Below are positions 922 through 28,601 of a stretch of 64,000 bases of DNA, piece by piece. The DNA comes from Candidatus Multivorans sp. (GTDB taxonomy: Bacteria > Acidobacteriota > Thermoanaerobaculia > Multivoradales > Multivoraceae). The position numbers were made by a program, and so were the translations under genes. The stretch lies in contig OZ250177.1 of the NCBI GenBank assembly GCA_965238135.1, positions 541,744 through 605,743 of the forward strand. Direction: 5' to 3'. The notes beneath the pieces were generated by a model. It saw nothing but the letters and a program-made list of their open reading frames with translations, had not been told where the DNA came from and did not search any database. Position 1 is the stretch's first letter, and each line of letters begins with the position of its first letter.

Positions 922-2119
922 TTGCCGGCGACACCGCTCCGGGCGCTCGCAGCGAAAGACCGACGTTCAGAGTAGAGAGTCTCGTCGGAGCAACACCCGT
1001 GCTCTGGGTGCGCGGGCCTTCTGGCCCGCATCCGGATTCCTGGCCGCAGTGGTCGCGTTCACGGCCGCGTGCGGTGAGCCGCCTCCTCAAGCATCGGCCG
1101 CCGAAGAGATCCCCCGCATCCCGAACCTGAGCGAACTCGACCCGGGGTTCGTGACCGCGGTCCGCGACGCGTGGTCAGCCGTCGACCGCGACCCGTCGAA
1201 CGGCGCGGCGGTCGGTGCCTTGGGCCGCCTATACCAGGCGCACCTCTACCTGGACCAAGCCCGGCAGTGCTACGAGCGCGCTCAACAGTTGGATCCAACC
1301 ACCCCCGACTGGCCTTACTACCTCGGCTTCCTGGCCGCCGGCCGCGGCGCCCACGAAGAAGCGGCGGACTACTTCGAGCGCGCCCTGCAACTCCGGCCAT
1401 CGTACTGGGTGGCTCGGGTGCGGCTCGGCAACGCGCTGCTCGCGGCCGCTGACCTCGACGGCGCCGAGCAGGCCTTCCGGGCCGCGCGGTCGGCGGCGCC
1501 GGGCACGCCTTGGGGCGAGCTTGGTCTGGGCAAGACGGCACGGCGCCGGGGACGCTTCGAGGAGGCAGCGGAGCACCTGCGCGCGACCCTTGCGCTCGAC
1601 CCGGAACATCGCGAGACGAGGTATCTGCTGGCGATGACCGAGCGGGAACTCGGCAATCCGGGACGAGCCGGCGAACTGCTCGAGGGACTGGCCAACGCCG
1701 AGGTCTCCAGCCTCGAGGACCCGATGATGCAGGCGGTGTTCGCCTTGGTGCGCGACACGCAGTCGCTGATTCGCACCGCGAACGAGCGTCTGGCGGAGGG
1801 GGACCACCGGACAGCGGAGCGGCTCTACCGTGAGGTGCTGCTGCTGGACCCCGATTCCTACGATGCCCATCTCAACCTGGGCGTGCTTTTTGGGTTGGCC
1901 GACCGGAACCAGGAGGCCGCCGCGTCACTGGAACGGGCGGTCGAGATCGATCCCGAGCGGGCGGACGCGTACGCCCTGCTGACCATCGCCTACATCAAGA
2001 GCGGCCGCGCGGAGGAGGGGCTGCAACAGTTGGAGAGGGCGCTCCAAATCGACCCGGACCATCCCCGGGCCGGCGAGATTCTCTACAGCCTGGGCGGCAA
2101 CCCGGAGCAACTGCGCTAA
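908..2119 (+). CDS. TPR-repeat lipoprotein
   Basis: Multiple 34-aa TPR-like units (e.g. LGRLYQAHLYLDQARQCYERAQQLDP, ADYFERALQLRP, AHLNLGVLFGLADRNQEAAASLERAVEIDP). Lipobox-like FLAAVVAFTAAC follows a basic N-region. Start is uncertain: the most upstream candidate is 833; the GTG at 908 is the first start after the stop of the upstream gene. High GC3 codon usage. Confidence 0.72.
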   Translation: MTRVDCRRHRSGRSQRKTDVQSRESRRSNTRALGARAFWPASGFLAAVVAFTAACGEPPPQASAAEEIPRIPNLSELDPGFVTAVRDAWSAVDRDPSNGAAVGALGRLYQAHLYLDQARQCYERAQQLDPTTPDWPYYLGFLAAGRGAHEEAADYFERALQLRPSYWVARVRLGNALLAAADLDGAEQAFRAARSAAPGTPWGELGLGKTARRRGRFEEAAEHLRATLALDPEHRETRYLLAMTERELGNPGRAGELLEGLANAEVSSLEDPMMQAVFALVRDTQSLIRTANERLAEGDHRTAERLYREVLLLDPDSYDAHLNLGVLFGLADRNQEAAASLERAVEIDPERADAYALLTIAYIKSGRAEEGLQQLERALQIDPDHPRAGEILYSLGGNPEQLR

Positions 2120-2281
2120 CACTCTTGTTTGGTCCCACCGGGTTGGCCCCACCGGGATGGCTCTGCGCCGCCTGGTGGGCGGCGCGCCGGCGGTTGCGCT
2201 TTACTCGGTCTTTACAAACGAAGGGGAGGATCGCGCGCCGTGACCGGAAGTAACGGGGCGCACACCAGAACGAGGGGCACA

Positions 2282-5083
2282 ATGAGAGAAAGCAACGCGA
2301 AGCAGAGAAGCCGGTCAAGTCAGCAAGATCCAATACGGCATGGACGCCGTTTGACCATCCTCGCGCTCGTAGTAGTCATGCACCTGCCGACCCTTTTCGC
2401 GGCTGCCCACGGGCAGACGAACTCGGCACCGGTTGTTCTACTCTCGATCGACGACGTGACCCTCACGGTGGGCTACGGGGCGACACAGTTCGACCTTGCT
2501 ACGCACTTCAATGATCCTGACGGCGATAGCCTCTCGTACGGAGTTTGGCACAGCAACAACGTTGGGGTCCTGTTCTCCGGGAGCACGATGTCTCTGACCG
2601 GCAGGGCAGCCGGCATGAGTACCGTCACAGTGCGAGCCACGGATCCTTCGGACCTCTACGCCGAATTGAGCTTCGCAGCGACGGTCAGAGCGAACACTGC
2701 GCCGGTTGTCCTTCTGCCGATCCCTGACGCGACGCTGACGGTCGGCGGCCGCACCGGGACGGTGGTCCTTTCGTCCCACTTCCAGGATGCTGAGGAGGGC
2801 GACCTGACCTACGCGGCGACATCGGCCGACCCTGCGATAGCGACGGCGACGGTGGCCGAGGGTGTGCTGTCCGTGACTGCCGTTGCGGCAGGAGCGACTA
2901 CCGTCACGGTGACGGCGAGTGACCCGGCCGCGGCGACTTCGGCTCCCGATGTATTCGCGGTGACCGTCGGGTCGCCAGTGAGTGTCACGGTACCGGATGC
3001 CAATCTTCGGACCGCGGTGGAGGCCGCGTTGGCAAGACAGGCCGGCGCGACGATCAACAGTGCCGAGATGGAAGGTCTGGGTCGGCTTGAGTGTGACAGT
3101 TGTGGCATTCAGAACCTCACCGGTTTGGAGTTCGCGACTGGATTGACCGCGCTGGCACTTGGCGGCAACTCGATTACTGACCCGACACCGCTCTCGGGTC
3201 TCACCGGTCTGACGGACCTGGATCTCGGCAGCAACTCGTTGACGGACGTTTCTCCGCTCTCGGGTCTCACCGGCTTGACGGACCTGGATCTCGGCAGCAA
3301 CTCGTTGACGGACGTTTCTCCGCTCTCGGGTCTCACCGGCTTGACGGACCTGGATCTCGGCAGCAACTCGTTGACGGATGTATCTCCGCTCTCGGGTCTC
3401 ACCGGTCTGACGGACCTGGATCTCGGCAGCAACTCGCTGACGGACGTTTCTCCGCTCTCGGGTCTCACCGGCTTGACGGACCTGGATCTCGGCAGCAACT
3501 CGTTGACGGATGTATCTCCGCTTTCGGGTCTCACCGGTCTGACGGACCTGGATCTCGGCAGCAACTCGTTGACGGACGTCACTCCCCTCTCGGGTCTCAC
3601 CGGCTTGACGGACCTGGATCTCGGCGGCAACTCGTTGACGGACGTTTCTCCGCTTTCGGGTCTCACCGGCCTGACGGACCTGGATCTCGCCAGCAACTCG
3701 TTGACGGACGCTTCTCCGCTTTCGGGGCTCACTGCCCTGACCGACGTGGAACTCGACGGCAACTCGCTGACGGACATCTCTCCGCTCTCGAGCCTGACCA
3801 GCCTCAGCCGACTGTATCTGCGCCACAATTGCCTTACGGGTATTCACGCGCTGACGAGCAACACCGGCTTGGGCCAAGGCGACCACATCGCGCTCGAGTG
3901 GAACCCTCTGGTAGCGAGCGCGGTTGCCGGCGATCTTGCCGCGCTGCGGGGCCGCGGAGTGACCGTGCTGGTCTCGGAGACGGCCTCGGTTGAAGTCGTA
4001 GCCCCGCTCAACGTGAGCGCGACCCCCGGTGACGGCGAACTGACATTGACCTGGGACTCCCCTCGAGACCCGGACGACGTAACCGTCTACGAAGTGCGCT
4101 GGCGTTCGGCCACGGGGACGTTCAGCGCCTGGACGATCGTTCCTTGTTCGTCAAAGCGCCGGCACAAGCTGACCGGTCTGGACAACGGCACGGCCTACAC
4201 GGTTGAACTACGGGCCGCAGGCCATGCCGACAACGGCGTCGCGACCGTAGGCCCCACAACAGTGAGGCCGCCCAACAGGGCACCGGTTGTCTCGCTCTCG
4301 ATCCCCGACGTGAGTCTCACAGTCGGCTACGGGGCGACGCAGTTCGACCTGTCGAACCACTTCAGCGACCCGGACGGCGACGAGCTCCTGTTTACAGCCA
4401 GCCCCCCGACTATCGTCACCGCCACCGTCACCGGAAACACGATGACCGTGGCACCGGTCGCAGCGGGCACTGGCGTGGCCACTGTGCGGGCGGCGGATCC
4501 TTCGGGACTCTTCGTTGAGCAGACGTTCAACGTGACCGTAGGCGCCAACGGCGCGCCGGAGGTGTCGCTGGCCATCGACAACATGACGCTCACGGTTGGT
4601 GGCCGGTCGGAAACCGTCACATTGTCAGCGCACTTTCGGGATCCCGAACAGGGGGCGCTGACCTACTCGTCCGTTTCCGCAAGTCCCGCCGTGGCAACCG
4701 CCACGGTATCTGATGGAGTACTGACAGTGAGCGGGGTGTCGGTCGGGACCGCACGGATGACCGTCACGGCGAGTGACCAGGGCGGCGCGACATCGGCTGG
4801 CGCTGTGTTCACGGTGACGGCAAGGGCCGCCGTGAATGTCGAGATACCGGACGCCAATCTCCGCACCGCCGTGGAACAGGAGTTGGGCAAACAGGCGGGG
4901 GCGACGATCACCAGCGCCGAGATGGAACAGATCGTCAGCTTCATGTGTCAAGATTGCAACATTGAAGTCTTGAGTGGTTTGGAGTACGCGACGGGAATGA
5001 CGGACCTCGACCTTGGTGACAATGTTTCAATTGCGGATCTGGCGGCTCTCTCAGGTCTCACTAACCTAACCTTGATTCGCTAG
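2282..5083 (+). CDS. Giant surface protein, 5' portion (signal peptide, 3 cadherin-like/Ig-like DPDGD domains, ~9 LRRs with LRR C-cap, FN3, 2-3 more cadherin-like domains, LRRs); truncated by IS insertion at 5066-5069
   Basis: ATG 2282 preceded by a GAGGGG RBS. Signal peptide RLTILALVVVMHLPTLFAAAHGQ. Repeated ~95-aa domains with a xxHFxDPDGDxLxY motif. 22-aa LRRs LSGLTGLTDLDLGSNSLTDVSP. FN3 segment VYEVRWRS...TAYTVELRA. The reading frame runs straight into the IS terminal inverted repeat, which supplies the stop (LIR*). Confidence 0.85.
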   Translation: MRESNAKQRSRSSQQDPIRHGRRLTILALVVVMHLPTLFAAAHGQTNSAPVVLLSIDDVTLTVGYGATQFDLATHFNDPDGDSLSYGVWHSNNVGVLFSGSTMSLTGRAAGMSTVTVRATDPSDLYAELSFAATVRANTAPVVLLPIPDATLTVGGRTGTVVLSSHFQDAEEGDLTYAATSADPAIATATVAEGVLSVTAVAAGATTVTVTASDPAAATSAPDVFAVTVGSPVSVTVPDANLRTAVEAALARQAGATINSAEMEGLGRLECDSCGIQNLTGLEFATGLTALALGGNSITDPTPLSGLTGLTDLDLGSNSLTDVSPLSGLTGLTDLDLGSNSLTDVSPLSGLTGLTDLDLGSNSLTDVSPLSGLTGLTDLDLGSNSLTDVSPLSGLTGLTDLDLGSNSLTDVSPLSGLTGLTDLDLGSNSLTDVTPLSGLTGLTDLDLGGNSLTDVSPLSGLTGLTDLDLASNSLTDASPLSGLTALTDVELDGNSLTDISPLSSLTSLSRLYLRHNCLTGIHALTSNTGLGQGDHIALEWNPLVASAVAGDLAALRGRGVTVLVSETASVEVVAPLNVSATPGDGELTLTWDSPRDPDDVTVYEVRWRSATGTFSAWTIVPCSSKRRHKLTGLDNGTAYTVELRAAGHADNGVATVGPTTVRPPNRAPVVSLSIPDVSLTVGYGATQFDLSNHFSDPDGDELLFTASPPTIVTATVTGNTMTVAPVAAGTGVATVRAADPSGLFVEQTFNVTVGANGAPEVSLAIDNMTLTVGGRSETVTLSAHFRDPEQGALTYSSVSASPAVATATVSDGVLTVSGVSVGTARMTVTASDQGGATSAGAVFTVTARAAVNVEIPDANLRTAVEQELGKQAGATITSAEMEQIVSFMCQDCNIEVLSGLEYATGMTDLDLGDNVSIADLAALSGLTNLTLIR
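3191..3784 (+). repeat. Nine tandem 66-bp repeats encoding 22-aa leucine-rich repeats; the first eight are >=90% identical at DNA level
   Basis: Unit ctctcgggtctcaccggcttgacggacctggatctcggcagcaactcgttgacggacgtttctccg is reiterated head-to-tail with only a few substitutions per copy. The last unit (3719-3784) is more diverged. Confidence 0.9.
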
Positions 5084-6575
5084 AAACTTCACGCACAGAT
5101 GGCGTTCTGGATGGCAAGGAAATGGTTGGCGACGGCTGGCGAGGCGCCGAGATGGAGCGTCGTCTTTCCTCTCGGTCTCAGCAGGACGGCGGCTCGTCCG
5201 AGGAGCTTGTAGCGGAGGGTGTGGATGCTCTGGAATCGGCGGCGCGTGCGGCGCTTGCGGTTGGTGTTCCTGGCCGGGGCGAGGGTTTGGGCCTGGAAGG
5301 CTCGGGAGAGGTTGAAGGCGAGCACGCTGAGCATCTGCCAGGCGGCGTTGGCGTGCTCTTCGAGGCTGGGCACGCAGTCGAAGGCGAAGCCTCCCTTGAG
5401 TTCGCCGTAGACCTTCTCGTGGCTGCCCCGGCCGTTGTAGAAGTGCCACAGGGTACGGCCCTGAATGCGCTTGTTGGTGAGGATGGCCGAGTACTCGTAG
5501 TGGCCGTCGTCGGGATCGAAGAGGTCGAGCTGGAAGTTCTTCCTGGTCTCGTGCGCGACATGGCGCCGGTAGAGCACGATTCTGCGGACCCGGCCCCAGA
5601 GCGTCTGCCGGGTCTCGTAGCACCAGGTGCGGTCGTCGACGCGCTTCCAGTGCGCCCTGGCGGCGATCTGCTTGAAGTCCAGCCACGGATAGAACGGGGC
5701 CTTGATCGCGTACTCGACGCCTGCGGGGTCGAGGACATCGAGCAGGTCTTCGCGGAAGAAGGCCCCGTCCATGCGGAGTTCCAGGATGCGGCGCTTGCCC
5801 ACGGCGTCGCGGACCTGCCGGATCAGGTCGTCGATGAAGCCGACGGCGGCCTTGCCGTCGTGGATGTTGCCGGGGCGGTTCCGGAGCCGCACGATCTGCC
5901 CCTCCTGGGCCTCGCAGGCGGTAACCGGGTAGTAGCTGGGGGCCTTCCGGCGGTGGGGGTTGTAGCCCCGGAAGGCTCCCTTGACCTTCAGTCCGGTGCT
6001 GACCACCGAACCATCGACGTCGAGGGTGAGCCGGCGACCGCCGGTCCGCCGCAAGACGTTCCCGACCAGCTCCTCGTTGAGCTTCGAGAGCCGTTCCACG
6101 TCCTCGCTGCGGATGCGTTGCATCCAGGCGCTCGCCGTCCGCGGCGCCGGCAGCCTGGAGAGGCCGGCGAAGCGGGCCAGGACGGGGTCGCCCTGCTCGT
6201 GGCGCAGGTGCAGGATGCGCCTTCCTCCGACCAGGATCAGGCCGAGCAGGACCAGGATCATCGGCACGGCGCCGAAGTCGGTGGCGGGGAATCCCGAACC
6301 CACGGCGCGGCGGAGAATGGCGACGAAACCGCTTCGTTTCATGTACTCCCGGACCAGCTCGAGCCCGGCATGAGAGGTAACTTCCTGGCGCCCGGTTCTG
6401 TAATGCGCGTTGCCGTTGACACGGCGCTTCAGATCTGCTCTTCTAGATCGCACTGGGAGTGGCCTTTCGTGGAGGGCGTTCGTGATCTATTCCAACCACG
6501 AGAATACCCCATCCCGCAAGGCCCTCCCGGCCTTCACGTCAGGTCGAACTAACGCATTGTTCTAGCGAATCAAGG
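5070..6575 (-). mobile_element. Intact insertion sequence of the IS4 superfamily (IS701/IS1380-like), 1,506 bp, with 16-bp perfect terminal inverted repeats and a 4-bp target site duplication CTAA
   Basis: Left TIR ccttgattcgctagaa at 5070-5085 is the exact reverse complement of 6560-6575. Flanking direct repeat ctaa at 5066-5069 and 6576-6579. Removing the element and one ctaa restores a continuous LRR reading frame (GLTNLRSLLLFGNAITDLSPLSGLT). Contains a single 454-aa transposase ORF. Confidence 0.9.
5089..6453 (-). CDS. DDE transposase, IS4 superfamily
   Basis: 454-aa ORF occupying the IS interior. Carries the Y(2)R(3)E(6)K signature (YNGRGSHEKVYGELK) characteristic of IS4-like DDE transposases. 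Confidence 0.8.
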   Translation of the reverse strand: MRSRRADLKRRVNGNAHYRTGRQEVTSHAGLELVREYMKRSGFVAILRRAVGSGFPATDFGAVPMILVLLGLILVGGRRILHLRHEQGDPVLARFAGLSRLPAPRTASAWMQRIRSEDVERLSKLNEELVGNVLRRTGGRRLTLDVDGSVVSTGLKVKGAFRGYNPHRRKAPSYYPVTACEAQEGQIVRLRNRPGNIHDGKAAVGFIDDLIRQVRDAVGKRRILELRMDGAFFREDLLDVLDPAGVEYAIKAPFYPWLDFKQIAARAHWKRVDDRTWCYETRQTLWGRVRRIVLYRRHVAHETRKNFQLDLFDPDDGHYEYSAILTNKRIQGRTLWHFYNGRGSHEKVYGELKGGFAFDCVPSLEEHANAAWQMLSVLAFNLSRAFQAQTLAPARNTNRKRRTRRRFQSIHTLRYKLLGRAAVLLRPRGKTTLHLGASPAVANHFLAIQNAICA

Positions 6576-8051
6576 CTAAGGAGCCTGCTGCTTTTTGGCA
6601 ACGCGATCACGGACCTGTCGCCACTCTCGGGCCTCACTGCCCTCGCGGAGTTGGAACTCGACACCAACTCGATCGCGGACGTGTCGCCGCTCTCGGGTCT
6701 GACTGGACTTTCCTCGCTGGATCTCGCCGGAAACCGGATCACGAGTGTGTCGCCGCTCTCCGGTCTTTCCGGCGTTGAGGGGCTGAATCTCTCCACCAAC
6801 GGGATCACGGACGTATCGCCGTTGTCGGGGCTGACCGCCCTGAGACGTCTGTACCTTCGCAACAACGCGATCGCGGACATAGCGGCGCTCTTGGGCCTCA
6901 CGGACCTCAGGCAACTGAACCTCGATGGCAACAGGATCACGAATGTGTCTCCGCTCTCAAGTCTGACGAAGCTCGATCGGCTGGTTCTCCAGAACAACTC
7001 GATCGCGGAGATAGCGCCACTCTCAGGTCTCACCGGCCTTACGCAACTCGACCTCGACGACAACTCGCTCACGGCCCTGGGTGCGCTCTCAGGCCTGACG
7101 AATCTCAGGTGGCTGTATCTTGAAAGGAACTGCTTGACGAGCATCGACGCCTTGACGAGCAATACTGGATTGGGTGCCGGTGACCGCATCGGACTTCGGG
7201 AGAACGCCCTGGACGCTGACTCGCTCGCCAACGGCGTAACCGCACTGCGGGACCGCGGAGCGACCGTCCTAGTGACGGAGGCGCCGACGGCCAGAGTCGG
7301 CGCGCCGGCACACCTGATTGCGATGCCGGGGAACGGGGAGCTAGCTCTGACCTGGCCTGCCCCGCGAGCCGCGGTCGACATCCCGGCTTATGAGGTGCGC
7401 TGGCGTTCGGCCATCGGGACCTTCAGCGATTGGTCGACCGTTCCGTGCTCGTCGAAGGGTCGGCACCTGCTGAGTGGTCTAGTCAACGGCACGACATACA
7501 CGGTGGAACTACGGGCGGCTGGCCATGTCAGTAATGGCGTGAAGAGCGTTACCGCCACACCCACCAGCACGGCCGTTGTCGAGCCGGTGGAGACGATGTT
7601 GTGGGCAGCTTTGACGACACCGGGTGAGGTACCGTCGATATACGACGACACCTTTGAGTGGCTAGTCTCGGCGAGAGGAGCTTGGCCGATGCTGGTAGCG
7701 GAGGCGACCGTTTACCAGCCGCCGGTATACCTCCGTGAACTTGAGATTGCTCAGGGTCAGGAGCGAGGTTCCCACGTTGAGATTGCGCTCTCGACAACAT
7801 CGACGGGTTTGTCGTCGCTACCACCGTGGATGTTCGGTTGGCGAGTCCTGTTCTCGGTTCACGATGTCGGGCTGAACGAAGCGCTCCTCGACGAGGACGG
7901 CTTACCGCTTGTTCAAGCACAACTGAATGCTCGCGGGGAGGGCCGGTTCGCTGGAACGCTCGAGGGCGAGCTCGACACGTTCTGGGCCGCGATCTCGGAT
8001 AGCGGCGACTACGACTGGAGTGAGGGCCTGTACGTTGAACTGAGGCCCTGA
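6576..8051 (+). pseudogene. 3' portion of the IS-disrupted giant surface protein gene (LRRs, LRR C-cap, FN3, C-terminal domain of unknown function)
   Basis: Frame is open from the first base after the right IS end (LRSLLLFGNAITDLSPLSGLTALAELELDTNSIADVSPLS...). It continues the LRR register of the upstream fragment and has no signal peptide or start of its own. It repeats the module order of the upstream part (LRR - LYLxxNCLTxIxALTSNTGLGxGD cap - FN3 YEVRWRS...TYTVELRAAGH). Confidence 0.85.
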
Positions 8052-8090
8052 AGGTGGGGCTCCCGTCGTGTGGACGGGAAGCTGCGTCAG

Positions 8091-8240
8091 TTGGAGAAGG
8101 CGCTTGAGATCGACGCGGATCACCCGCGCGCTCTGCAGGTTCTTTTCCACAGCCTGGACGAAACTAGGAATTCCGGCTAACATTCTTTGTTTGGCCCCAC
8201 CGAGACGGCTCTTGCGCCGCCTGGTCATCGGCGCGACGGA
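8091..8240 (+). repeat. ~150-bp degenerate duplicate of the TPR-gene 3' end plus downstream leader (copy of 2030-2190)
   Basis: 8091-8180 encodes LEKALEIDADHPRALQVLFHSLDETRNSG*, paralogous to the TPR protein C-terminus LERALQIDPDHPRAGEILYSLGGNPEQLR*. It is followed by the shared motif ctaacaYtctttgtttggYcccaccg...ggctctKgcgccgcctggt in both copies. Roughly 75-80% identity. Confidence 0.75.
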
Positions 8241-8527
8241 GTTGCCTTGGTGGGACCCTGAGTCGGGCCGGTCCGGGTTGGACAAGTGCCTGACCGGGAG
8301 CGGCTTGGAGTCGAACGGGCAGTCGGAAGAATGATCGTCGCGGCCGTCGGCCGCGAGACGCCTCCGGGCTTCATCGGGTTTTTTCCATTCCCAGGGAGAA
8401 TCACCAGGGCGTGATCGGTTTTGTCCGATACGCCCGCAGGAGTATTGATCGTGTTTCCGTCCCAGGCTGTCCCGAGGGCGTGTGGATGGCTTGGTGGAAG
8501 GTCGACTAACTAAGTGGGGGGCAATAG

Positions 8528-11500
8528 ATGAGTTGGACGTTTGGTCGCGCGGCATTGCGTGTGGCGGCGGGCTGCGTGTTGGTCTTTGGGGGGACAGGGC
8601 TTGCGTTCGGGCAGATCGTGATCAACGAGTTCATCCAGGACCCGACCCAGGTCAACGACAACGCCGGAGAGTGGTTGGAGCTGTACAACGCGGGCGGTAC
8701 GCGGGTCGACATCAATGGCTGGAAGCTCGATGACGACGCCACGCTGACCGGAGACCACACGATAAACAACGGCGGAAGCCTGTGGATCGAGATCGGTGGC
8801 TACCTGGTCCTGGGAATCAACGACGACACTGGGACCAACGGCGGCGTGACGGTCCACTACGAGTGGAGCAGCTTCGGTCTGACCCAAGGCTCGGACAAGA
8901 TCATCCTGCTCAACGCCACGAACGCCGTGCAGGACCGGGTCGAGTACGACGACGGCGCCACCTTCCCGGACGCCAGCGGCGCTGCCGCGGCCCTCAGGAG
9001 CCCGGACCTGCCCAACGACGTGGGCCGCAATTGGTGCGAGGCGACGACGCCCTACGGCGACGGTGACAAGGGCACCCCCGGCGCCGCGAACGACTGTCCG
9101 CCTTTGATCCCCTCAATCGACTGTTCCGGTGGGGTTGCAATTCACGTGATTCAGGGCAGCGGCGCCGCTAGCCCCTGTACGGAGCAAGACGGGATGGCAA
9201 CCACGAACGACAACATCGTCACCGCGGTCGGTGCCGGTGGCTTCTTCATCCAGACGCCGACGGCGAGCAGCGACAACGATGTCGACACGTCGGACGGCAT
9301 CTTCGTCCTGTACGACGGTACGACGATGATCAACGTCGGCGACCAGGTAGATGTCACCGGAACGGTCGAGGAGTTCTTCGCCTTCACGCGGATCGATGCG
9401 ACTACGTCGGTTACCGACGCCTCGGTGACGATCGATGCCAGCAACCAGACGTTGCCCGCGCCGGTCGAGTTCGGCGCGACGGTGCCTTCGCCCGACCCCG
9501 CCAGTCCAAGTTGTGCGATCGAATACGAGTGCTACGAGGGCATGCGGATTCGGGTCGCGACGGGCACGACAAGCACGCCGAGCCAGTCCTTCGGGGGGAG
9601 GCAGCCGGACCCGGTGGCCGAGATGTTCGTCACCCCGACCTCGTCACGAGCTTTTCGCGAAAAGGGCGTCGAGTACCCGGGTTTGACCTCAAATCCCGGT
9701 ATTCCGGTGTGGGACGGCAATCCGGAGCTGTTCGAACTGGACCCCGACAAGCTGGGGCTGCCGAACGCGTCCTGGGTTCCGGGGACGACGTTCTCCGCCA
9801 CCGGTGTGCTTGGCTATGACTTCGGCGACTATGAGATTTGGCCGACCGAACTGAGGCGCCTCACCGCGGCGCCTCCGCTGCCGCATCCGGTGCGAGTGAG
9901 AACAGCGGGTGAGGTCTCTGTCGGCTCGCTGAACATGTTGAACCTGAATGACGAATCGTCGAACTACAACACCAAGCTCAGCAAGCTGTCGCGCTACGTC
10001 CGTCAGGTGCTCAGGTCGCCCGACATCCTCGGAGTGCAGGAGGTGAACACGATCACGGCGCTCACGGGCCTCGCCGCCAAGATCCGGGCGGACGATCCGA
10101 GCGTCAACTACGCCGCCTACCTGGAGGAAGGGCCAATAGCCGACAGAATTGACGTCGGCTTCCTCGTGCGCTCGGGGGTTACTGTCCAATCGGTGACCCA
10201 GCTCAACAAGACCGAGACCTTCCTCAACCCGACGACGAACATGAACGATATCCTGAACGACCGGCCACCGTTGCTGCTGGAGGCGGCCGTTGAGGGCATT
10301 GAATTCTCGGTCCTCGTCATCCACAACCGCTCGCTTAGAACCTTCGAGACCGAGCGAGTCCAGGCGAAGAGACTGGCGCAGGCGCAGTCCGTCGCCCGCA
10401 TCGCGCAGTCGCGCCAGAGCTCGAAGCTGGTCATCGTGGGGGACTACAACGCGTACCAGTTCACCGATGGCTACGTCGACGTTGTGGGCCAGATCTCCGG
10501 CAACGTGACGCCGAGCGAGAACCTTCGCTCAGGACCGGATCTGGTCACCCCGAATCTCGTCAATCTGATTGACCGTGTGCCCGAACCGCAGCGCTACTCC
10601 TACATCTTCGAAAACAACATGCAGGTGCTCGACCACGCTCTCGTGAACCAGGAGATGGTTGGAAGCGTCGTCGGGATCACCTATGCCCGCGGCAATGCGG
10701 ACGCCCGCCGCTCAGTGGAGGAGGACAATCCGGACTCGGCTCTATTCGCTTCCGACCACGACGGTTTCGTGGTCTATCTGTCGGCGCCGGGGAATCCCGC
10801 TCCGCCGGCCAGTATCAATCCGGACATCGGCGGTGGCGGCGAGCCCGAGCCGGATCCCGAGGCCGACCTCGACCTCGACGCGGAGAGCCAGATCGTCTCG
10901 GCGAGCAAGGTCCGGTACAGCGTCAACGTCGAGAACGCCGGGCCGGGTACCGCTCGGAACGTCGTGGTCACGAGTACCTTCTCAGGTGCGGCCGTCTCGG
11001 TCGTGGCGACGACCTCCGGCTGCGACGAGGATCCGGATGGTGTGCCCGACTGCACCTTGGGCGACATCGCGGCAGGCGACTCGGCCTCCTTCACCATCGA
11101 TGTCGATACCGGTGGGGCAAGCGAATCCTCGCTCAGGTACAACGGTTCCGCCGGCAGCGACACGACGGACCCGGCGCCCACGGACGATGACGACTCCGTC
11201 GTTCAGCCGCTTGGGCCGCCGAACGCGCCGTCCGATCTCACCGCGACCGCGATCAGCTCGACGGCGATCGAGGTCCGCTGGCGGGACAACTCGCGCGTGG
11301 AGACCCAGTTCGATGTCTTCTTGCAAGGTCCGGGCGACCCCAGGCCGCGGTTGTTCGGGTCCGTGCCGGCGAACAGGACATCTCTGGTCGTCGACGACTT
11401 GGTGCCAAGCGTCACGTACGACTTCGCGGTCGAGGCGCGGAACGGGCTGCTCCGCTCCGGGCGGACGCCGACGTCGACCGCGACCACGTGGGACGAGGCG

Positions 11501-12952
11501 GATCTGCGCATTGAGGCGGAAGGCCTGATCGTCTCGGAGGAGCTCGTCCGCTACACCGTCAGCGTCAGCAACGCAGGTCCCGAAGATGCAGCGACTGTCG
11601 TCGTGACCAGTGCTCTGATGGCGGCGGAAGGCGCTTTCGAGACTTCGACGTCCGGCTGTCGCGAGGATCCGGGTGGGGTGCCGGAGTGCAGTCTGGACGA
11701 CATCGACGTCGGAGAGTCGGAGTCGTTCACGATCGATGTCCGGATCGAGGCGGCGAGCCGGAACTCGCTCACGTACGGCGGCGCTATCGGCGACGCGGCG
11801 GATCCGAGAACTGACGCACGCATGGTCGAGATGACACTGCCTCTTGGTCGGCCCGAAGCGCCGTCCCATCTCGAGGCCTCCGCGGTCGGCGGGATGGAGG
11901 TCGAACTCCGGTGGCGGGACAACTCGGACAGAGAGACGGGATTCGGCGTCTTCCTGCAGGGACCGGGCGACTTGAAGCTGAGGATGATCGGAACGGCGCC
12001 GGCGAACACGACCTCAATGGTCGTCAACGAACTCGTACCGACCGTCACCTACAGCTTCGCCGTGGAGGCTCTGAACGGAGCGCTTCGTTCGGAGCGCACG
12101 CCCGAGGCCACGGCGACCACCTGGACCGCGGATGCGGCCCGATGCGGCGAAGAGGACGCTCTGTGCGTCGGGGCTTTTCAGGTGGAGGTCGAGTGGGACG
12201 ACGGCAAGGGCCGGATGGGGCGGGGATTCGCCGAGCGCCTGACGGCGGATGCCGGAGACTTCTGGTTCTTCCATCCCGCCAACATCGAGCTCGTGGTCAA
12301 GGTGCTGAATGGCTGCGCGATGAACGACCACTACTGGGTCTACGCCGCCGGCTTGACGGATGTTGGAGTGACGATGACGGTGCGCGATCTCCGTAACGGC
12401 GTCGAGAAGAGCTGGACGAACCCCCTCGGCAGGCGGTTCAGGCCGATCACGGATTCCTTGGCGTTCGCCACCTGCGACAGCGGACCGAGCGTGACCACTC
12501 AGAGCCGGAGCGTGCTGAGCGGCGCCCCGCGGGGCCGGGGCGAAGAGCTGTACGAGGCCAGCCTGAGCGCTGCCGACCTGATCGACTCGGCCAGCAGTGC
12601 TTGCACTGCGGGCGACGCGACCCTCTGCCTGATGGGCTCACGTTTCGAAGTGCGGGCCGACTGGGAAGTCGGTGGTCAAAGCGGCTTCGCAACCGCCATT
12701 CCGCGCACCCCGGATACGGGGATGTTCTGGTTCTTCAGCTCGGACAACGTCGAGCTGGTGGTCAAGGTGCTCGACGGCTGTCGAGAGAACGGTTACCGAT
12801 GGGTGCTCATGGGTGGCTTGACCGACGTTGGAGTGGAGGTAACGGTGACCGACAGCGAGTCGGGCAAGGCGAAGATGTACCGGAATCTCGAGGGGACGCC
12901 GTTTGCGACGATGTTCGACGTGACCGCCTTTGCCTGCAGCGCGGGGCCGTAG
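8528..12952 (+). CDS. Secreted multidomain extracellular nuclease: signal peptide, lamin-tail domain (LTD), EEP-family nuclease domain, two DUF11-like + FN3 modules, and two copies of a C-terminal Cys-containing domain of unknown function
   Basis: GGGGGG RBS then ATG. Signal peptide ALRVAAGCVLVFGGTGLAFGQ. LTD motif IVINEFIQDP...GEWLELYN...VDINGWKLDD. Endonuclease/exonuclease/phosphatase motifs (VGSLNMLNLND..., GVQEVNT, VIVGDYNAYQF, SDHDGFVV). Duplicated DUF11-like units (VRYSVNVENAGPGTARNVVVTS..., VRYTVSVSNAGPEDAATVVVTS...), each followed by an FN3 (IEVRWRDNS...TYDFAVEA). Two ~115-aa C-terminal repeats with four conserved Cys (C...LC...FWFF...VELVVKVL(N/D)GC...). Architecture resembles ExeM/NucH-type extracellular nucleases. 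Confidence 0.8.
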   Translation: MSWTFGRAALRVAAGCVLVFGGTGLAFGQIVINEFIQDPTQVNDNAGEWLELYNAGGTRVDINGWKLDDDATLTGDHTINNGGSLWIEIGGYLVLGINDDTGTNGGVTVHYEWSSFGLTQGSDKIILLNATNAVQDRVEYDDGATFPDASGAAAALRSPDLPNDVGRNWCEATTPYGDGDKGTPGAANDCPPLIPSIDCSGGVAIHVIQGSGAASPCTEQDGMATTNDNIVTAVGAGGFFIQTPTASSDNDVDTSDGIFVLYDGTTMINVGDQVDVTGTVEEFFAFTRIDATTSVTDASVTIDASNQTLPAPVEFGATVPSPDPASPSCAIEYECYEGMRIRVATGTTSTPSQSFGGRQPDPVAEMFVTPTSSRAFREKGVEYPGLTSNPGIPVWDGNPELFELDPDKLGLPNASWVPGTTFSATGVLGYDFGDYEIWPTELRRLTAAPPLPHPVRVRTAGEVSVGSLNMLNLNDESSNYNTKLSKLSRYVRQVLRSPDILGVQEVNTITALTGLAAKIRADDPSVNYAAYLEEGPIADRIDVGFLVRSGVTVQSVTQLNKTETFLNPTTNMNDILNDRPPLLLEAAVEGIEFSVLVIHNRSLRTFETERVQAKRLAQAQSVARIAQSRQSSKLVIVGDYNAYQFTDGYVDVVGQISGNVTPSENLRSGPDLVTPNLVNLIDRVPEPQRYSYIFENNMQVLDHALVNQEMVGSVVGITYARGNADARRSVEEDNPDSALFASDHDGFVVYLSAPGNPAPPASINPDIGGGGEPEPDPEADLDLDAESQIVSASKVRYSVNVENAGPGTARNVVVTSTFSGAAVSVVATTSGCDEDPDGVPDCTLGDIAAGDSASFTIDVDTGGASESSLRYNGSAGSDTTDPAPTDDDDSVVQPLGPPNAPSDLTATAISSTAIEVRWRDNSRVETQFDVFLQGPGDPRPRLFGSVPANRTSLVVDDLVPSVTYDFAVEARNGLLRSGRTPTSTATTWDEADLRIEAEGLIVSEELVRYTVSVSNAGPEDAATVVVTSALMAAEGAFETSTSGCREDPGGVPECSLDDIDVGESESFTIDVRIEAASRNSLTYGGAIGDAADPRTDARMVEMTLPLGRPEAPSHLEASAVGGMEVELRWRDNSDRETGFGVFLQGPGDLKLRMIGTAPANTTSMVVNELVPTVTYSFAVEALNGALRSERTPEATATTWTADAARCGEEDALCVGAFQVEVEWDDGKGRMGRGFAERLTADAGDFWFFHPANIELVVKVLNGCAMNDHYWVYAAGLTDVGVTMTVRDLRNGVEKSWTNPLGRRFRPITDSLAFATCDSGPSVTTQSRSVLSGAPRGRGEELYEASLSAADLIDSASSACTAGDATLCLMGSRFEVRADWEVGGQSGFATAIPRTPDTGMFWFFSSDNVELVVKVLDGCRENGYRWVLMGGLTDVGVEVTVTDSESGKAKMYRNLEGTPFATMFDVTAFACSAGP

Positions 12953-13095
12953 CCGGCGCCGCTACTCCGGCGTGTACCAGATCGGCGACGTGTAGGCGCG
13001 CTGCCGGGTGACCATGTAGCCGGGGGCCCGGTGGGCTATCGTCGGCCGGTCGAAGGCGGCGGAGTCGCGCCGCATGGAACGCGGAGGCAGGTCAC

Positions 13096-14145
13096 ATGGG
13101 TGAAGGCGGGAACGTGTTGAAGGCGGTTCAACTGGGGCGGAAGTGCGGGCTCCGGGTGTCGGAGTTGTGCCTGGGGACGATGAACTTCGGCGAGCCGGGC
13201 CGGGGTCACCAGGGTGACTGGACGCTCGACCTGGACGCTTCGCGCCCGATCTTCCAGGCGGCGATCGAGCACGGGTTGTTCTACTTCGACTGCGCCGACA
13301 TCTACGGCATCGGCGCCTGCGAGCGACTCGTGGGTTCGCTCCTGCGCGAGCTGCTGCCGCGCGACGAGTACGTCCTCTCGACCAAGGTGTCGATGCCGAT
13401 GGGCAGGTCGCCGAACCAGGGCGGCCTGTCGCGCAAGCACATCATGGAAGGGGTCGACGGCTGTCTGAAGCGTCTCGGTCTCGACTATGTGGACCAGTTG
13501 ATCATCCACCGCCATCCGCACGGGATTCCAGGTCAGGTGCGGGCGCCGATCGAGGAGACGATGGAGGCCCTGCACGACGTGGTGAAGGCCGGCAAGGCGC
13601 TGTACCTGGGCGCCTCGTCCATGTACGCGTGGCAGTTCGTGGAGCTCCAGATGACGGCGCGGCACAACGGCTGGACCGAGTTCGTCTCGATGCAGAACCA
13701 CTACAACCTGGTGTACCGCGAGGAGGAGCGGGAGATGAACCCGTACTGCGCCCGAACCGGCGTGGCGCTCACGCCGTGGTCACCGCTTGCGCGCGGCATC
13801 CTCACCGGTTCCTACAAGGGCAGCTTCGATGAGGGCGGCACCGACCGCTCGAAGGGCGGCGACCGGGTGCGCACGGAAGGCCTGTACCGCGGCGCCGCCA
13901 CGTTCGACATCGCCGACCGCGTGGTCGAGGTGGCGAAGAAGTACGGCCGCACGCCGGCGCAGATTTCGCTTGCCTGGCTGGTGAACAAACCCGAGGTCTG
14001 CGCGCCGGTGGTGGGCGTGTCGAAGGTCGGCCAGTTGGAGCAACTCGTCGAGGCGACGAAGATCGAGCTCGACGCGGAAGATGTGGCCTACATGGAGGAG
14101 CTGTACCAGCCGGTGGAGAACCTGCTGGCGCTCGGCCACTCCTGA
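13096..14145 (+). CDS. Aldo/keto reductase family oxidoreductase
   Basis: N-terminal LRVSELCLGTMNFG and ...DCADIYG...E..VG motifs; typical AKR (Kv-beta/YajO-like) length and conservation. Start may be the GTG a few codons downstream. Confidence 0.8.
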   Translation: MGEGGNVLKAVQLGRKCGLRVSELCLGTMNFGEPGRGHQGDWTLDLDASRPIFQAAIEHGLFYFDCADIYGIGACERLVGSLLRELLPRDEYVLSTKVSMPMGRSPNQGGLSRKHIMEGVDGCLKRLGLDYVDQLIIHRHPHGIPGQVRAPIEETMEALHDVVKAGKALYLGASSMYAWQFVELQMTARHNGWTEFVSMQNHYNLVYREEEREMNPYCARTGVALTPWSPLARGILTGSYKGSFDEGGTDRSKGGDRVRTEGLYRGAATFDIADRVVEVAKKYGRTPAQISLAWLVNKPEVCAPVVGVSKVGQLEQLVEATKIELDAEDVAYMEELYQPVENLLALGHS

Positions 14146-17471: not shown

Positions 17472-19823
17472 ATGGACAAGCGAGATCTCTCAGAGCGCGA
17501 TATCTGCACGAAGTTCATCACGCCCGCCCTGCGCGGGGCCGGATGGGACGAGATGTCACAGCTTCGCGAGGAGGTGAGCTTCACCGATGGCCGCATCACC
17601 GTGCGAGGAAAGATGGTTTCGCGCGGAAAGCGGAAGCGCGCCGACTACATCCTCGACTTCAAGCCGAACATTCCGCTCGCGGTGATCGAGGCCAAGGACA
17701 ATACCCACAGCGTGGGCGACGGCATGCAGCAGGCCTTGGACTACGCCGGGACCCTGAACATCCCGTTCGCGTTCTCGTCGAACGGCGACGGCTTCGTGTT
17801 CCACGACCGCACGGGGGCCAGTACGCCCCGCGAGACGAACCTGCCGCTCGACGCGTTTCCGTCGCCGGCCGATCTGTGGGCGCGCTATCGGGCCTGGAAG
17901 GGCCTGACGCCGGAGGCCGAGAGGATCGTCCTCCAGGACTACTTCGAGGACCGTGGCGGCAAGACGCCGCGCTACTACCAGATCAACGCCGTCAACGCGA
18001 CGATCGAGGCCATCTCCAAGGGGCAGGACCGCATCCTGCTCGTCATGGCCACGGGCACGGGCAAGACGTACACCGCTTTCCAGATCATCTGGCGGCTGTG
18101 GAAGGCGCGGCGCAAGAAGCGCATCCTGTTCCTTGCCGACCGCAACGTGCTCATCGACCAGACGATCGCGAACGACTTTCGCCCGTTCGGCGGGGCCATG
18201 ACCAAGCTCTCGCGCGACATCGACGCCTCCTTCGAGGTGTATCTCGGCCTCTATCAGGCGATCACGGGGCCGGACGACCACCAGAAGGCGTTTCGGAAGT
18301 TCTCGCCGGAGTTCTTCGATCTGATCGTGATCGACGAATGCCACCGGGGAAGTGCAGCTGACGATTCGGCGTGGCGCGAGATCCTCGAGTACTTCTCCTC
18401 CGCAACCCAGATCGGCCTCACCGCCACGCCGAAGGAGACGAAGTATGTCTCCAACATCGACTACTTCGGGGAGCCCGTCTTCTCCTACTCCCTGAAACAG
18501 GGCATCCGCGACGGCTTCCTCGCGCCCTACAAGGTGGTCAAGGTCCACATCGACCGGGACGTCGAAGGCTACCGTCCGGAAAAGGGCCAGCTTGACCGCG
18601 ACGGAGAGGAGGTTGAGGACCGCATCTACAATGTCAGGGACTTCGATCGCACGCTCGTCATCGACGGGCGGACGAAGCTGGTGGCTGAGAAGGTCACGAC
18701 GTTTCTGCGGGAGAGCGGCGACCGCTTCCAGAAGGCGATCGTTTTCTGCGTCGATCAGGAGCACGCCGCCCGGATGCGCCAGGCGCTCGTCAACGAGAAT
18801 GCCGATCTTGTCGAGCGCAACGCACGGTATGTCATGCGGATCACGGGCGCGGACGAGGCTGGAAAGGCCGAACTGGGGAACTTCATCGATCCCGAATCGA
18901 GTCACCCGGTGCTCGTCACCACGTCGCGCCTGCTGTCCACCGGCGTCGATGTCCAGACGTGCCGGGTCATCGTGCTCGACCGGGAGGTAGGCTCGATGAC
19001 CGAGTTCAAGCAGATCGTCGGCCGCGGCACCCGAGTGCATGAGGACACCGGGAAGTTCTACTTCACGCTCATCGACTTCCGGAACGCGAGCGGCCACTTC
19101 GCGGACCCGGACTTCGACGGCGAGCCGGTGCAGATCTACGAACCAGGCGTGGGGGATCCGATCCTTCCTCCCGATACGCCCGAGGATGAAGACCTCGGTG
19201 AAGAGGAGATGGCCGCTATCGGGGGCGGCAACGGCCTGCCGCCCACGGAGACGCATCCCCTGAAGATCTTTGTTGATGGCATCGAGGCGACCATCGTCGC
19301 CGAGCGGGTCGAGTACCTCGACGAGCACGGCAAGCTCATCACCGAGTCGCTACGCGACTTCACGAGGAAGGCGCTGCGCAGGCGCTTCGCGAGCCTGGAC
19401 GACTTCCTGAACCGTTGGAATGCTGCGGAGCGCAAGCAGGCGATCATCGACGAGATGGCGGCCGAGGGCCTGCCACTTACTGCGATTGTCCCTGAATTGG
19501 GCAAGGATCTCGACCCCTTCGATCTCGTCTGCCACATCGCCTTCGACGTCAAGCCGCTAACCCGCCGGGAACGGGCCGAGAACGTCAGGAAACGGGACGT
19601 GTTCACGAAGTACGGAGGACAGGCCCGCGCCGTGCTCGACGCACTGCTCGACAAGTACGCCGACGAGGGCGTCATCAATCTCGACGACGCCAACGTGCTC
19701 AGGATTCCGCCGCTCGACAGTCTCGGCACCCCGGTCGAGCTCGTCCGCGCCTTCGGCGGAAAGCCCGGCTTCGAGCGGGCCGTGCGCGATCTTCAGTCGG
19801 CGCTCTACAGGGAGGTCGCCTAA
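17472..19823 (+). CDS. hsdR: Type I restriction-modification system, restriction (R) subunit HsdR
   Basis: N-terminal HsdR_N PD-(D/E)xK nuclease motif (DYILDF...IEAKD). SF2 helicase motifs I LVMATGTGKT, II DECHR, III LTATP, VI QIVGRGTR. GGGAGG RBS upstream. Confidence 0.9.
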   Translation: MDKRDLSERDICTKFITPALRGAGWDEMSQLREEVSFTDGRITVRGKMVSRGKRKRADYILDFKPNIPLAVIEAKDNTHSVGDGMQQALDYAGTLNIPFAFSSNGDGFVFHDRTGASTPRETNLPLDAFPSPADLWARYRAWKGLTPEAERIVLQDYFEDRGGKTPRYYQINAVNATIEAISKGQDRILLVMATGTGKTYTAFQIIWRLWKARRKKRILFLADRNVLIDQTIANDFRPFGGAMTKLSRDIDASFEVYLGLYQAITGPDDHQKAFRKFSPEFFDLIVIDECHRGSAADDSAWREILEYFSSATQIGLTATPKETKYVSNIDYFGEPVFSYSLKQGIRDGFLAPYKVVKVHIDRDVEGYRPEKGQLDRDGEEVEDRIYNVRDFDRTLVIDGRTKLVAEKVTTFLRESGDRFQKAIVFCVDQEHAARMRQALVNENADLVERNARYVMRITGADEAGKAELGNFIDPESSHPVLVTTSRLLSTGVDVQTCRVIVLDREVGSMTEFKQIVGRGTRVHEDTGKFYFTLIDFRNASGHFADPDFDGEPVQIYEPGVGDPILPPDTPEDEDLGEEEMAAIGGGNGLPPTETHPLKIFVDGIEATIVAERVEYLDEHGKLITESLRDFTRKALRRRFASLDDFLNRWNAAERKQAIIDEMAAEGLPLTAIVPELGKDLDPFDLVCHIAFDVKPLTRRERAENVRKRDVFTKYGGQARAVLDALLDKYADEGVINLDDANVLRIPPLDSLGTPVELVRAFGGKPGFERAVRDLQSALYREVA

Positions 19824-19826: not shown

Positions 19827-21278
19827 ATGTCCGTCAGCACTCTGGTCAAGTCCATTCAGAACATCATGCGCCAGGACGCTGGGGTGGACGGCGACGCGCA
19901 GCGCATCAGCCAACTGTGCTGGATGTTCTTCCTCAAGATCATCGACGACCAGGACCAGGAACTCGAGCTCTTTGACGACGGCTACGGCTCGCCCGTCCCT
20001 GCAGATCTGCGATGGCGGAGCTGGGCGGCCGACCCGGAAGGCATCACCGGCGAAGAGCTGCTCGACTTCGTCAACGGCGATCTCTTTCCACAGCTCAAGG
20101 AACTCCCGCCCAGGGCAGGCCCTCGCGCGAACGTCGTGCGCGACGTGTTCGAGGACGCCTACAACTACATGAAGTCTGGTCAGTTGATGCGGCAGGTGGT
20201 CAACAAGATCAACAGCATCGACTTCAACAACCTGGCCGCCCGCCAGCACTTCGGCGACATCTACGAGCAGATTCTGAACGACCTGCAATCGGCCGGCAAC
20301 GCGGGTGAGTACTACACCCCGCGGGCCGTGACCACCTTCATGGCCCGGATGATCGACCCGAAGCCGGGCGAGATCCTGTTCGACCCGGCTTGCGGCACGG
20401 GCGGGTTCCTCACCTGCGCTATGCAGCACATGCGCGAGCGGTATGTGAAGCGGCCCGAGGACGAGGCGAGCATGCAGGTTTCGCTGCTCGCGGTGGAGAA
20501 GAAGCCGCTTCCCCACATGCTCGCCGTCACGAACATGCTGCTGCACGGCATCGAGGATCCGTCCTTCCTGCGCCACGACAACACCTTGGCGCGGCCCTAC
20601 ACCTCCTGGGGCCGCGACGAGCGCGTGGACATCGTGCTGACCAATCCGCCGTTCGGCGGCAAGGAGGAGGATGGCATTGAGTCGAACTTCCCACAGCACT
20701 TCCGAACGCGAGAGACGGCGGACCTGTTCCTGGCCCTGATCATCCGGCTACTCAAGCCTGGAGGCAGGGCCGCCGTCGTCCTGCCAGACGGCTCCCTGTT
20801 CGGCGAAGGCGTCAAGACGCGGCTCAAGGAGCACCTGATGAAGGAGTGCAACCTTCACACCATCGTGCGCCTGCCGAACTCGGTGTTTCGCCCCTACGCC
20901 TCGGTCGGAACGAACCTGCTGTTCTTCGAGAAGGGCGAGCCGACGAGGGACATCTGGTTCTGGGAGCATCTCGTACCCGAAGGCCAGAAGGCCTACTCCA
21001 TGACACGGCCCGTACGGGTGGAGCATCTCGACGACTGCGCCGATTGGTGGGGTGGGACGGAGCGCACCGGCCGGGAGGAGGGTGGCCGGGCCTGGAAGGT
21101 GAGCGCCGACGAGATCAAGGCGCGCGGCTACAACATCGACATCAAGAACCCTCATACCGAGGAGGAGGACCTTGGCGATCCCGAGACGCTTCTGGAGGAA
21201 CTGACGAGCGCCGAGGCTGAGGTGCTGTCGGTGCGGAGTGAGTTGAGGCGAATTCTGACTGAGGCGCTCCTACGGTGA
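19827..21278 (+). CDS. hsdM: Type I R-M N6-adenine DNA methyltransferase subunit HsdM
   Basis: Motif I FDPACGTGGFL and motif IV LTNPPFGG; HsdM N-terminal domain. Start is 4 nt after the hsdR stop. Confidence 0.92.
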   Translation: MSVSTLVKSIQNIMRQDAGVDGDAQRISQLCWMFFLKIIDDQDQELELFDDGYGSPVPADLRWRSWAADPEGITGEELLDFVNGDLFPQLKELPPRAGPRANVVRDVFEDAYNYMKSGQLMRQVVNKINSIDFNNLAARQHFGDIYEQILNDLQSAGNAGEYYTPRAVTTFMARMIDPKPGEILFDPACGTGGFLTCAMQHMRERYVKRPEDEASMQVSLLAVEKKPLPHMLAVTNMLLHGIEDPSFLRHDNTLARPYTSWGRDERVDIVLTNPPFGGKEEDGIESNFPQHFRTRETADLFLALIIRLLKPGGRAAVVLPDGSLFGEGVKTRLKEHLMKECNLHTIVRLPNSVFRPYASVGTNLLFFEKGEPTRDIWFWEHLVPEGQKAYSMTRPVRVEHLDDCADWWGGTERTGREEGGRAWKVSADEIKARGYNIDIKNPHTEEEDLGDPETLLEELTSAEAEVLSVRSELRRILTEALLR

Positions 21279-26398: not shown

Positions 26399-26982
26399 GG
26401 TGTTCCGCGTCGCCCCTCGAACCGACCCTAGAGCCCGGCCGTGGATTTCCCGCTACGGCCGCGGATCCGCTTGCTGTGGTGTGACGCGTCACCCTGGTCG
26501 GACGAGGGAAGGCTCGGCCAACCGACAACGTCGAACCCGCGGAGGGGCCGGGGAACGCCACACTACCGCAGCCGTTCGGATCCATCGGAGAGGCATGTCG
26601 GGTGCTGCTGCCGGTGGCAGTTTCGGCCCCACCGGTCTGGGTGGCCTTGAAGTCTTCCCGCAGGGATCAACTCTTGACGGGAGCGACCCCGCCGGTGGAA
26701 GCCGGCGTATTGCCGGCGCGCCGCACCGGGGACCGGGGCCACGGGGTCGCTCCCGTCACGCTCTGGACGCATGTCGCGGCCGGGGCGTTTCATTCTCGGG
26801 AGGGGATCCACTGGTGAGAAGAGAAGACTCAGTTGCACGTTCCTGGAAGTCGCTCGGGCCGATTGGTGGAAGTGAGCGGCTGTTGTTGCCCTTCCGTCGC
26901 TGTACGGGGCCTGGCGCGGCTAGACTGTGGAACTGGACCGGAGCCGGGCGGCTGGGTTCTGGCGGCGAGAGGTAGACAGGGG

Positions 26983-28376: not shown

Positions 28377-28601
28377 GGTTCTGGGGCCGCTACGACCGAG
28401 GAGCCCGGGAGCCGCAGTGTGTGTGTGTCGAGCGACCCGGCGTTTCGGTTGTTCCGAGCGCGATCCTCTCGGTGCGAGAGGGGCTCGCATGGCTTCGCGG
28501 CTGTCCAGCGCAGGCGACGCTCGCCCTTCCGCCGCCGGGGGAGTTCCAGTCGGTGGAGCCGGGGGTTGCGGTCGATCGGAATGCGAAGTAGAGTTGCACC
28601 T

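Follow-up and report, generated by a model that had tools for sequence, protein, structure and literature searches.

Evidence for a recent insertion of an IS1380-family element in the gene for a modular leucine-rich-repeat protein of Candidatus Multivorans

Two open reading frames (ORFs) that encode leucine-rich repeats (LRRs), parted by a transposase gene on the opposite strand, lie near the beginning of a 64-kb stretch of contig OZ250177.1 from Candidatus Multivorans sp. (hereafter "the window", meaning the whole stretch, on whose numbering all window coordinates are given). Do they represent two proteins that happen to flank a mobile element, or one gene that a mobile element has recently divided, and in the latter case what would remain of its product? 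An initial annotation, made by reading the letters of the window, had proposed a divided gene, interrupted by a 1,506-bp insertion sequence (IS) with perfect 16-bp terminal inverted repeats (TIRs) and a 4-bp direct repeat, CTAA, at its borders. All of these features were borne out, at the positions collected in Table 1. We conclude, with a probability of about 0.93, that the locus records a genuine and recent insertion by a probably active element of the IS1380 family, at a CTAA site in a gene for a modular protein predicted to be secreted.

Boundaries of the element and the gene that it divides

The two ends of the element are inverted copies of one another at 16 of 16 positions (CCTTGATTCGCTAGAA), and beyond these 16 bp the similarity extends in neither direction. 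When up to two mismatches were allowed, the 16-mer was found only at these two places in the 64-kb window and in none of 100 shuffles; the window contains a single copy of the IS. Excision in silico of the IS together with one copy of CTAA, followed by translation, restored one open frame: the two gene parts listed in Table 1 join in 4,260 nt, in which 1,419 codons run without interruption to the final stop, and the junction (marked by a slash) reads ...LAALSGLTNL/RSLLLFGNAITDLSPLSGLT..., the same as in the initial annotation.

An uninterrupted allele was sought among relatives, and the orthologous site, with a single CTAA, was found in a related genome of 86-92% nucleotide identity (L004; ERZ25766727, 2.03 Mb), where positions 9361-9420 read GGTCTCACTAACCTAAGGAGACTGCTG. 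Across the junction this sequence aligns without gaps over 179 nt (165 identities), the 74 nt through CTAA being identical, and it can be aligned with the reconstructed gene over an unbroken 3.3 kb, at 86.5%. Three homologous proteins read through the junction uninterrupted: P0005, P0121 and, more distantly, the product of a further locus (L005, at 2x coverage), which is uninterrupted but diverged at the target. P0005, which is encoded on the L004 contig and is the nearest of the homologues to extend across the junction (82% amino acid identity), reads ...ALSGLTNLRRLLLFGNAITD... across it, and P0005 and P0121 at the same place share ...ALSGLT(N/S)LRRLLLFGNAITD....

Could a long-read assembler have misplaced a repeated IS, or merged two strains into one consensus? 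The contig derives from a metagenome and the IS is present in several copies in the genome, both of which speak for such an artefact; a mis-join would not, however, yield both a perfect 4-bp duplication of the YTAR type and an exact restoration of the reading frame, and the contig, covered about 24x, is the same in two deposits. We regard an artefact of assembly as very improbable, and return to the insertion as a genuine event.

Transposase, further copies and choice of target

The initial annotation had recognized an insertion sequence with an intact transposase, an assessment that holds and to which a family can now be attached. A single transposase ORF, the sole long ORF there with a family match, fills the 1,506-bp element; its 454-residue product matches NCBIfam NF033539 (transpos_IS1380, IS1380 family transposase) at 226.4 bits against a curated cut-off of 180, the match covering positions 5-418 of the 419 in the model, with no IS5-family model among the matches of the NCBIfam scan. 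Pfam DDE_Tnp_1_4 was matched as well (3e-35; 121.6 bits against a cut-off of 34.7), as was DDE_Tnp_1. Predicted catalytic residues, assigned from the pattern of motifs, lie in LDVDGS (D145/D147), RMDGAF (D229) and Y339-x2-R-x3-E346-x6-K353; together they make up the D, D, E/K signature of IS4-related DDE transposases. The element is an apparently unnamed member of the known IS1380 family, and disruption of a gene by an IS is a known mechanism. An ORF of 476 codons on the plus strand opposite the transposase gene (5122-6552) matched no family and can most probably be put down to GC-rich DNA, as a shadow ORF.

In the source annotation the transposase is begun at an internal ATG, giving 417 residues. 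Relatives conserve residues 1-37 of the 454-residue form, and every other copy has Leu at residue 38, so that the GTG at 6453 is the real start. The internal ATG exists only through a lineage-specific substitution, L38M, common to both copies of the element in this genome; copies elsewhere are called as 454 residues from the GTG. Exact look-ups of the 454-residue protein, whether begun with V or with M, returned no match, and the 417-residue form was matched, because the copies of this genome carry L38M and the gene caller chose that ATG.

The second copy in this genome (L007, 2768-4273) is separated from the first by about 3 Mb of one 4.45-Mb contig (ENA ERZ26167216 ctg495886), is identical to that of the window at 1506 of 1506 positions, and is flanked by CTAG on both sides. 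Ten further copies (L008-L017), distributed over three assemblies (ERZ28669063, ERZ21829562 and ERZ25071132), are all 1,506 bp in length, 99.7-99.9% identical, and bounded by the same 16-bp ends; they encode a 454-residue transposase with L38 (P0128) that is identical to the window transposase at 453 of 454 residues. More distant are two relatives of about 90% identity in a Candidatus Multivorans sp. metagenome-assembled genome (Acidobacteriota, Thermoanaerobaculia), whose ends share CCTTGATTCGC: the first (L001) is intact, measures 1,506 bp and is flanked by TACG, and the other, with TTAG flanks (L002), is itself interrupted by a nested ISL3-family element (421-residue transposase; L002 5275-6619) at about IS position 111. 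Outside the window, the 4.45-Mb contig further encodes two diverged IS1380-family transposases, P0131 and P0154 (87% and 74% identical; 439 and 365 residues), so that this genome carries several lineages of the family.

Among the 14 copies examined, 12 have matching 4-bp flanks. The duplicated tetranucleotide is CTAA in the window and in L013; CTAG in L007 and L017; TTAG in L002, L008, L011, L016 and the site that L009 and L012 share; TTAA in L015; and TACG in L001. Ten of the 11 independent sites with matching flanks conform to YTAR (P = 1.5e-29), a pattern found at 66 of the approximately 64,000 positions of the window (0.10%). The copies elsewhere keep the same ends and the 4-bp duplications that the initial annotation had described for the window. 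Two otherwise intact copies have flanks that differ, TTAG/CTAA in L010 and TTAG/CTCT in L014; such flanks would be left by recombination between copies, and they suggest either that or deletion of adjacent sequence. In the proposed mechanism the transposase would cut YTAR with a stagger of 4 bp, and repair would duplicate the target.

Near-identical copies with duplications of their own, at no fewer than 11 different loci in four assemblies, indirectly suggest an element that is active. The copies are 99.7-99.9% identical although the neighbouring genes in those genomes are only about 70-84% identical to those of the window, a disparity that suggests that the element has spread horizontally, and recently, between related taxa. 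For the window insertion itself, a recent transposition within this genome would account for the fact that both of its copies are identical and share the lineage-specific L38M. The initial annotation had judged the event recent from the lack of decay in the IS, and our evidence points the same way: neither the ends nor the duplication shows any mismatch, the two halves of the gene are still open, and the second copy is identical throughout and has L38M in common with the first.

Several observations weigh against this account or narrow it. Neither a same-strain empty site nor the left end of the IS had any match in JGI metagenome contigs; the known empty site is that of a related organism. The contig is a metagenome-assembled consensus, in which, at the long-read coverage given above, a fixed insertion and one carried by part of the population look alike. 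A simple scan of 1900-8600 found no sigma-70-like promoter, and the intact frame is the one indication that the gene may have been functional before it was interrupted. The element, at 1,506 bp, is also slightly shorter than the 1.55-2.0 kb that ISfinder gives as the range of the IS1380 family. We met no evidence that contradicts the insertion itself.

The interrupted protein and the effect of the insertion

The protein specified by the reconstructed gene, 1,419 residues in length, begins with a signal-peptide-like N-terminus (by eye, a basic n-region followed by a hydrophobic stretch ending in AHG), continues with two modules, each ordered as two immunoglobulin-like (Ig-like) domains, N-cap, LRR domain, C-cap and FN3, and ends in a C-terminal domain; it is predicted to be secreted or surface-located. 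The 5' part of the gene encodes the N-terminus, the first module entire (with an internalin-type N-cap and 11 LRRs), the second pair of Ig-like domains, and the N-cap and first repeat of the second LRR domain. Repeats 2-10 of that domain, its C-cap, the second FN3 and a C-terminal beta domain fall to the 3' part. The LRRs are spaced by exactly 22 residues, with 11 repeats in the first domain and 10 in the second, as determined from motif spacing, and the two modules share 56% identity. Pfam models matched were LRR_4/LRR_8 (6e-77 and 4e-57), LRR_EndoS, fn3 (twice), Big_9, He_PIG and Big_2. Residues 227-502 align to residues 3-279 of the InlA chain (E = 1e-89); since the alignment begins at the third residue of InlA, the LRR domains include the internalin-type N-cap. 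Homologues of the gene carry one, two or three modules.

The domains that precede the LRRs had been termed "cadherin-like", a label that we replace: by sequence they are bacterial Ig-like domains (Big_9, 33 bits; He_PIG, 24.5; Big_2, below its cut-off), and the Pfam Cadherin family found no match in the host protein. In the PDB their sequences match weakly, and the structures concerned are the Big_2 domains of lambda gpV and of intimin; they contain a DPDGD motif and are possibly Ca-binding. The duplicated order of modules proposed in the initial annotation stood as to its two LRR, cap and FN3 modules and its C-terminal domain, with a revised count of Ig-like domains, which start at residues 49, 140, 667 and 758 and number two plus two, not three plus two or three.

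A 66-bp tandem array (3188-3804; 9.3 copies, 90% matches) codes for nine near-identical 22-residue LRRs of the first domain. Such arrays are prone to change in copy number and to frameshifts in long-read assembly, as in the split orthologues of L004 and L005. Upstream of the ATG, GAGGGG is present at a distance of 6-11 nt and is conserved in L005; terminator-like sites in 1900-8600 occur at the level of chance, and Rfam recognized no RNA family in the whole window.

The C-terminal domain, of about 150 residues, has only eight representatives among 1.84 billion sequences in an exhaustive HMMER search. Both in the window protein and in four of its closest homologues (P0005, P0121, P0122 and P0123), no more than 20 residues separate it from the C-terminus. 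AlphaFold2 modelled it at a pLDDT of 82 from 11 sequences and, unusably, at 52 from seven; no solved structural relative of the domain was recognizable.

The insertion falls at residue 929/930, so placed that repeat 1 of the second LRR domain is parted from repeat 2. The interrupted ORF (P0004 in the source annotation) runs into the IS and stops at 5083, at a TAG (5081-5083) that lies in the IS end, as the initial annotation had read it; its 933 residues end in ...GLTNLTLIR. Missing from this ORF are 490 C-terminal residues, which include the C-terminal domain and the second FN3 as well as nine LRRs. The downstream ORF of 466 codons in the source annotation, given a TTG start at 6651, would be unable to substitute for them, because it has no signal peptide; the 3' part of the gene is also cut off from the start codon. 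Translation that ended at the TAG would yield an exported fragment of 933 residues with the first module and the second Ig-like pair, and this fragment, if made, would finish in an uncapped LRR stub followed by TLIR. That a secreted N-terminal product is still made is plausible, the signal peptide and first module being intact.

Would such a product be a functional, shorter adhesin, so that the insertion remodelled the protein instead of inactivating it, as the initial annotation implied? A start codon, a signal-peptide-like N-terminus, a full first module (two Ig-like domains, 11 LRRs, cap and FN3) and a second Ig-like pair all precede the stop, and the number of modules varies naturally among homologues; against this, the stub of the second LRR domain, an N-cap and one repeat, would expose its hydrophobic core, and the C-terminal domain that is lost may serve in anchoring or export. 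We hold remodelling to be doubtful. Most likely, the net effect of the insertion would be that an accessory surface protein has lost its function or had it severely altered, a change that is probably neutral or mildly deleterious and tolerated in a variable locus rich in IS elements.

The locus in relatives, its neighbours and its known counterparts

The same element has entered this gene family elsewhere. In two other assemblies (L009 and L012, positions 4875-6388 of each; ERZ28669063 ctg2043 and ERZ21829562 ctg258086l) a copy of 99.7-99.9% identity interrupts a homologue of the host gene (62% amino acid identity, measured against residues 978-1392), where it occupies another site, in the opposite orientation, inside the second FN3 (...HLIAMPGNGE/LTLTWP..., the slash marking the insertion); excision of the IS and one duplication gives an open frame of 472 codons. 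This homologue is preceded by IS21-family genes and has a frameshift near its 3' end. In L004, sequence that encodes a DDE_Tnp_1 fragment (6267-6696) replaces the first 52 nt of the orthologue and the region upstream, and remnants of ISL3 and IS3 (rve) lie just downstream (11048-13758); the orthologue itself is called as two ORFs (336 and 956 residues) split in the LRR repeats, which at 10x coverage may be an error of assembly. A syntenic FG-GAP/ASPIC - TPR - nuclease locus of 79-82% nucleotide identity (L008; ERZ28669063 ctg2043, 2960144-2971508) is without the LRR gene, and its IS sits, with TTAG flanks, in the part of the ExeM/NucH-like nuclease gene that encodes the lamin-tail domain (Pfam LTD). 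In every relative examined the locus is rich in IS elements (IS21, IS3, ISL3 and IS5-like). Such variability across the lineage fits an accessory gene under weak constraint.

Losses of this kind might instead be adaptive, if the surface protein were a liability, whether by admitting phage as a receptor, by causing aggregation or by its cost as an adhesin, so that IS knock-outs were selected. The presence of the same IS at a different site in the 62%-identical homologue of two assemblies, the replaced start of the L004 orthologue and the absence of the gene from the syntenic L008 locus all agree with this explanation, and selection for loss of the host gene is possible. Because the surroundings are IS-rich in all relatives examined, however, repeated hits may simply reflect insertions tolerated in a dispensable region; the gene contains six YTAR sites, about the average of the window, which speaks of neither target enrichment nor selection. 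We consider adaptive inactivation unlikely. Broader still, and in our estimation improbable, is the conjecture that this narrowly distributed family of giant internalin-like proteins, repeatedly hit by IS elements in several related uncultured genomes (three independent hits at the four loci examined), could reflect selection for the loss of a surface structure, and that the all-beta domain of about 150 residues could be a new fold or a new module for anchoring or binding. A recent insertion, tolerated at an accessory locus, is the reading that we retain.

With respect to annotation, 2282-5083 and 6651-8051 are to be treated as a single pseudogene in two halves and not as separate LRR proteins, and the start of the transposase should be moved from the ATG (417 residues) to the GTG (454 residues). 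For IS biology, an IS1380-family element is defined whose ends are known exactly and whose target is strictly YTAR; for the host, turnover of an accessory, adhesin-like locus is documented. The event is of an ordinary kind and alters nothing in how transposition or surface proteins are currently understood; what it adds is modest, namely the specificity for the target, a gene family that is hit recurrently and an uncharacterized beta domain.

Downstream of the host gene, across a gap of 477 bp with a weak terminator-like site at 8363-8378, the window encodes on the plus strand (8528-12952) an ExeM/NucH-like extracellular nuclease of 1,474 residues, with LTD, Exo_endo_phos, CLIPPER/DUF11 and FN3 domains and with paralogues in related loci. 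Farther on, 17472-42206 appears to be a defence island, the components of which are listed with the features of the insertion in Table 1.

Table 1. Features of the insertion, the divided gene and the apparent defence island (window coordinates)
Feature	Positions	Strand	Basis or remark
5' gene part, codons 1-929 and first base of codon 930	2282..5069	+	domains, joined frame
Left target-site duplication, CTAA	5066..5069	.	directly outside the IS end
IS1380-family IS, complete, 1,506 bp	5070..6575	-	strand is that of the transposase, antisense to the host gene
IRR (inverted repeat at the transposase 3' end), CCTTGATTCGCTAGAA	5070..5085	.	its TAG is the premature stop of the host ORF
Transposase gene, 454 aa, GTG start at 6453, intact	5089..6453	-	Pfam, NCBIfam, motifs
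IRL (inverted repeat upstream of the transposase gene)	6560..6575	.	exact reverse complement of 5070-5085
Right target-site duplication, CTAA	6576..6579	.	directly outside the IS end
3' gene part, remainder of codon 930 through stop	6580..8051	+	domains, joined frame
C-terminal domain, ~150 aa, no known family	7551..8048	+	missing from the predicted exported product
HsdR, type I restriction-modification	17472-19823		in apparent defence island
HsdM, type I restriction-modification	19827-21278		in apparent defence island
HsdS, type I restriction-modification	21275-23044		in apparent defence island
IrrE/M78 peptidase-domain protein	23041-24189		in apparent defence island
S_4TM SMODS-associated effector	26833-27828		in apparent defence island
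AAA ATPase	28365-29522		in apparent defence island
AAA_15/AAA_21 ATPase, weak PtuA/MADS3 similarity	40359-42206		in apparent defence island

How do the element and the protein compare with known systems? With IS1380, IS1247, ISEcp1/ISEc9 and ISPme1 the element shares a single DDE transposase that scores above the cut-off of the family model, inverted ends of about 15-16 bp starting with CC, direct repeats of 4-5 bp, the presence of several copies per genome and the inactivation of genes through insertion. The ISfinder description of the family likewise has ends of about 15 bp that start with CC. Direct repeats of 4-5 bp are reported for the family (PMC12116815), and IS1247 has a length of 1,672 bp, 16/13-bp inverted repeats and direct repeats of 5 bp (PMC3281130). 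Compared with such typical members the element of the window is somewhat shorter, comes from an uncultured lineage, and shows no sign of one-ended mobilization of flanking DNA. The sites of ISEcp1 are AT-rich and of 5 bp, whereas the target here is a strict 4-bp YTAR; an outward promoter like that of ISEcp1 was considered and rejected, as the transposase stop lies merely 19 bp from the IS end and leaves no room for one. In its target the element resembles IS5, which also duplicates a 4-bp target of the YTAR/CTAG type, but its transposase is outside the IS5 family, and its size and ends differ as well.

The protein has its nearest counterparts in the Listeria internalins (InlA, InlB and InlH), with which it shares 22-residue LRRs that follow an internalin-type N-cap and a predicted location that is secreted or at the surface. 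Unlike them, it has the LRR domain twice, each time behind two Ig-like domains of the Big_9/He_PIG type; its LRRs are followed by a different, Cys-containing C-cap and FN3, the internalin inter-repeat Ig domain being absent by sequence; and it is without an LPXTG or GW anchor, its C-terminal domain being unrelated (Pfam and NCBIfam contained no matching anchor family, and the C-terminus ends in ...LYVELRP). The protein may work like an internalin-type binding module, but it does not belong to the internalin family of Listeria.

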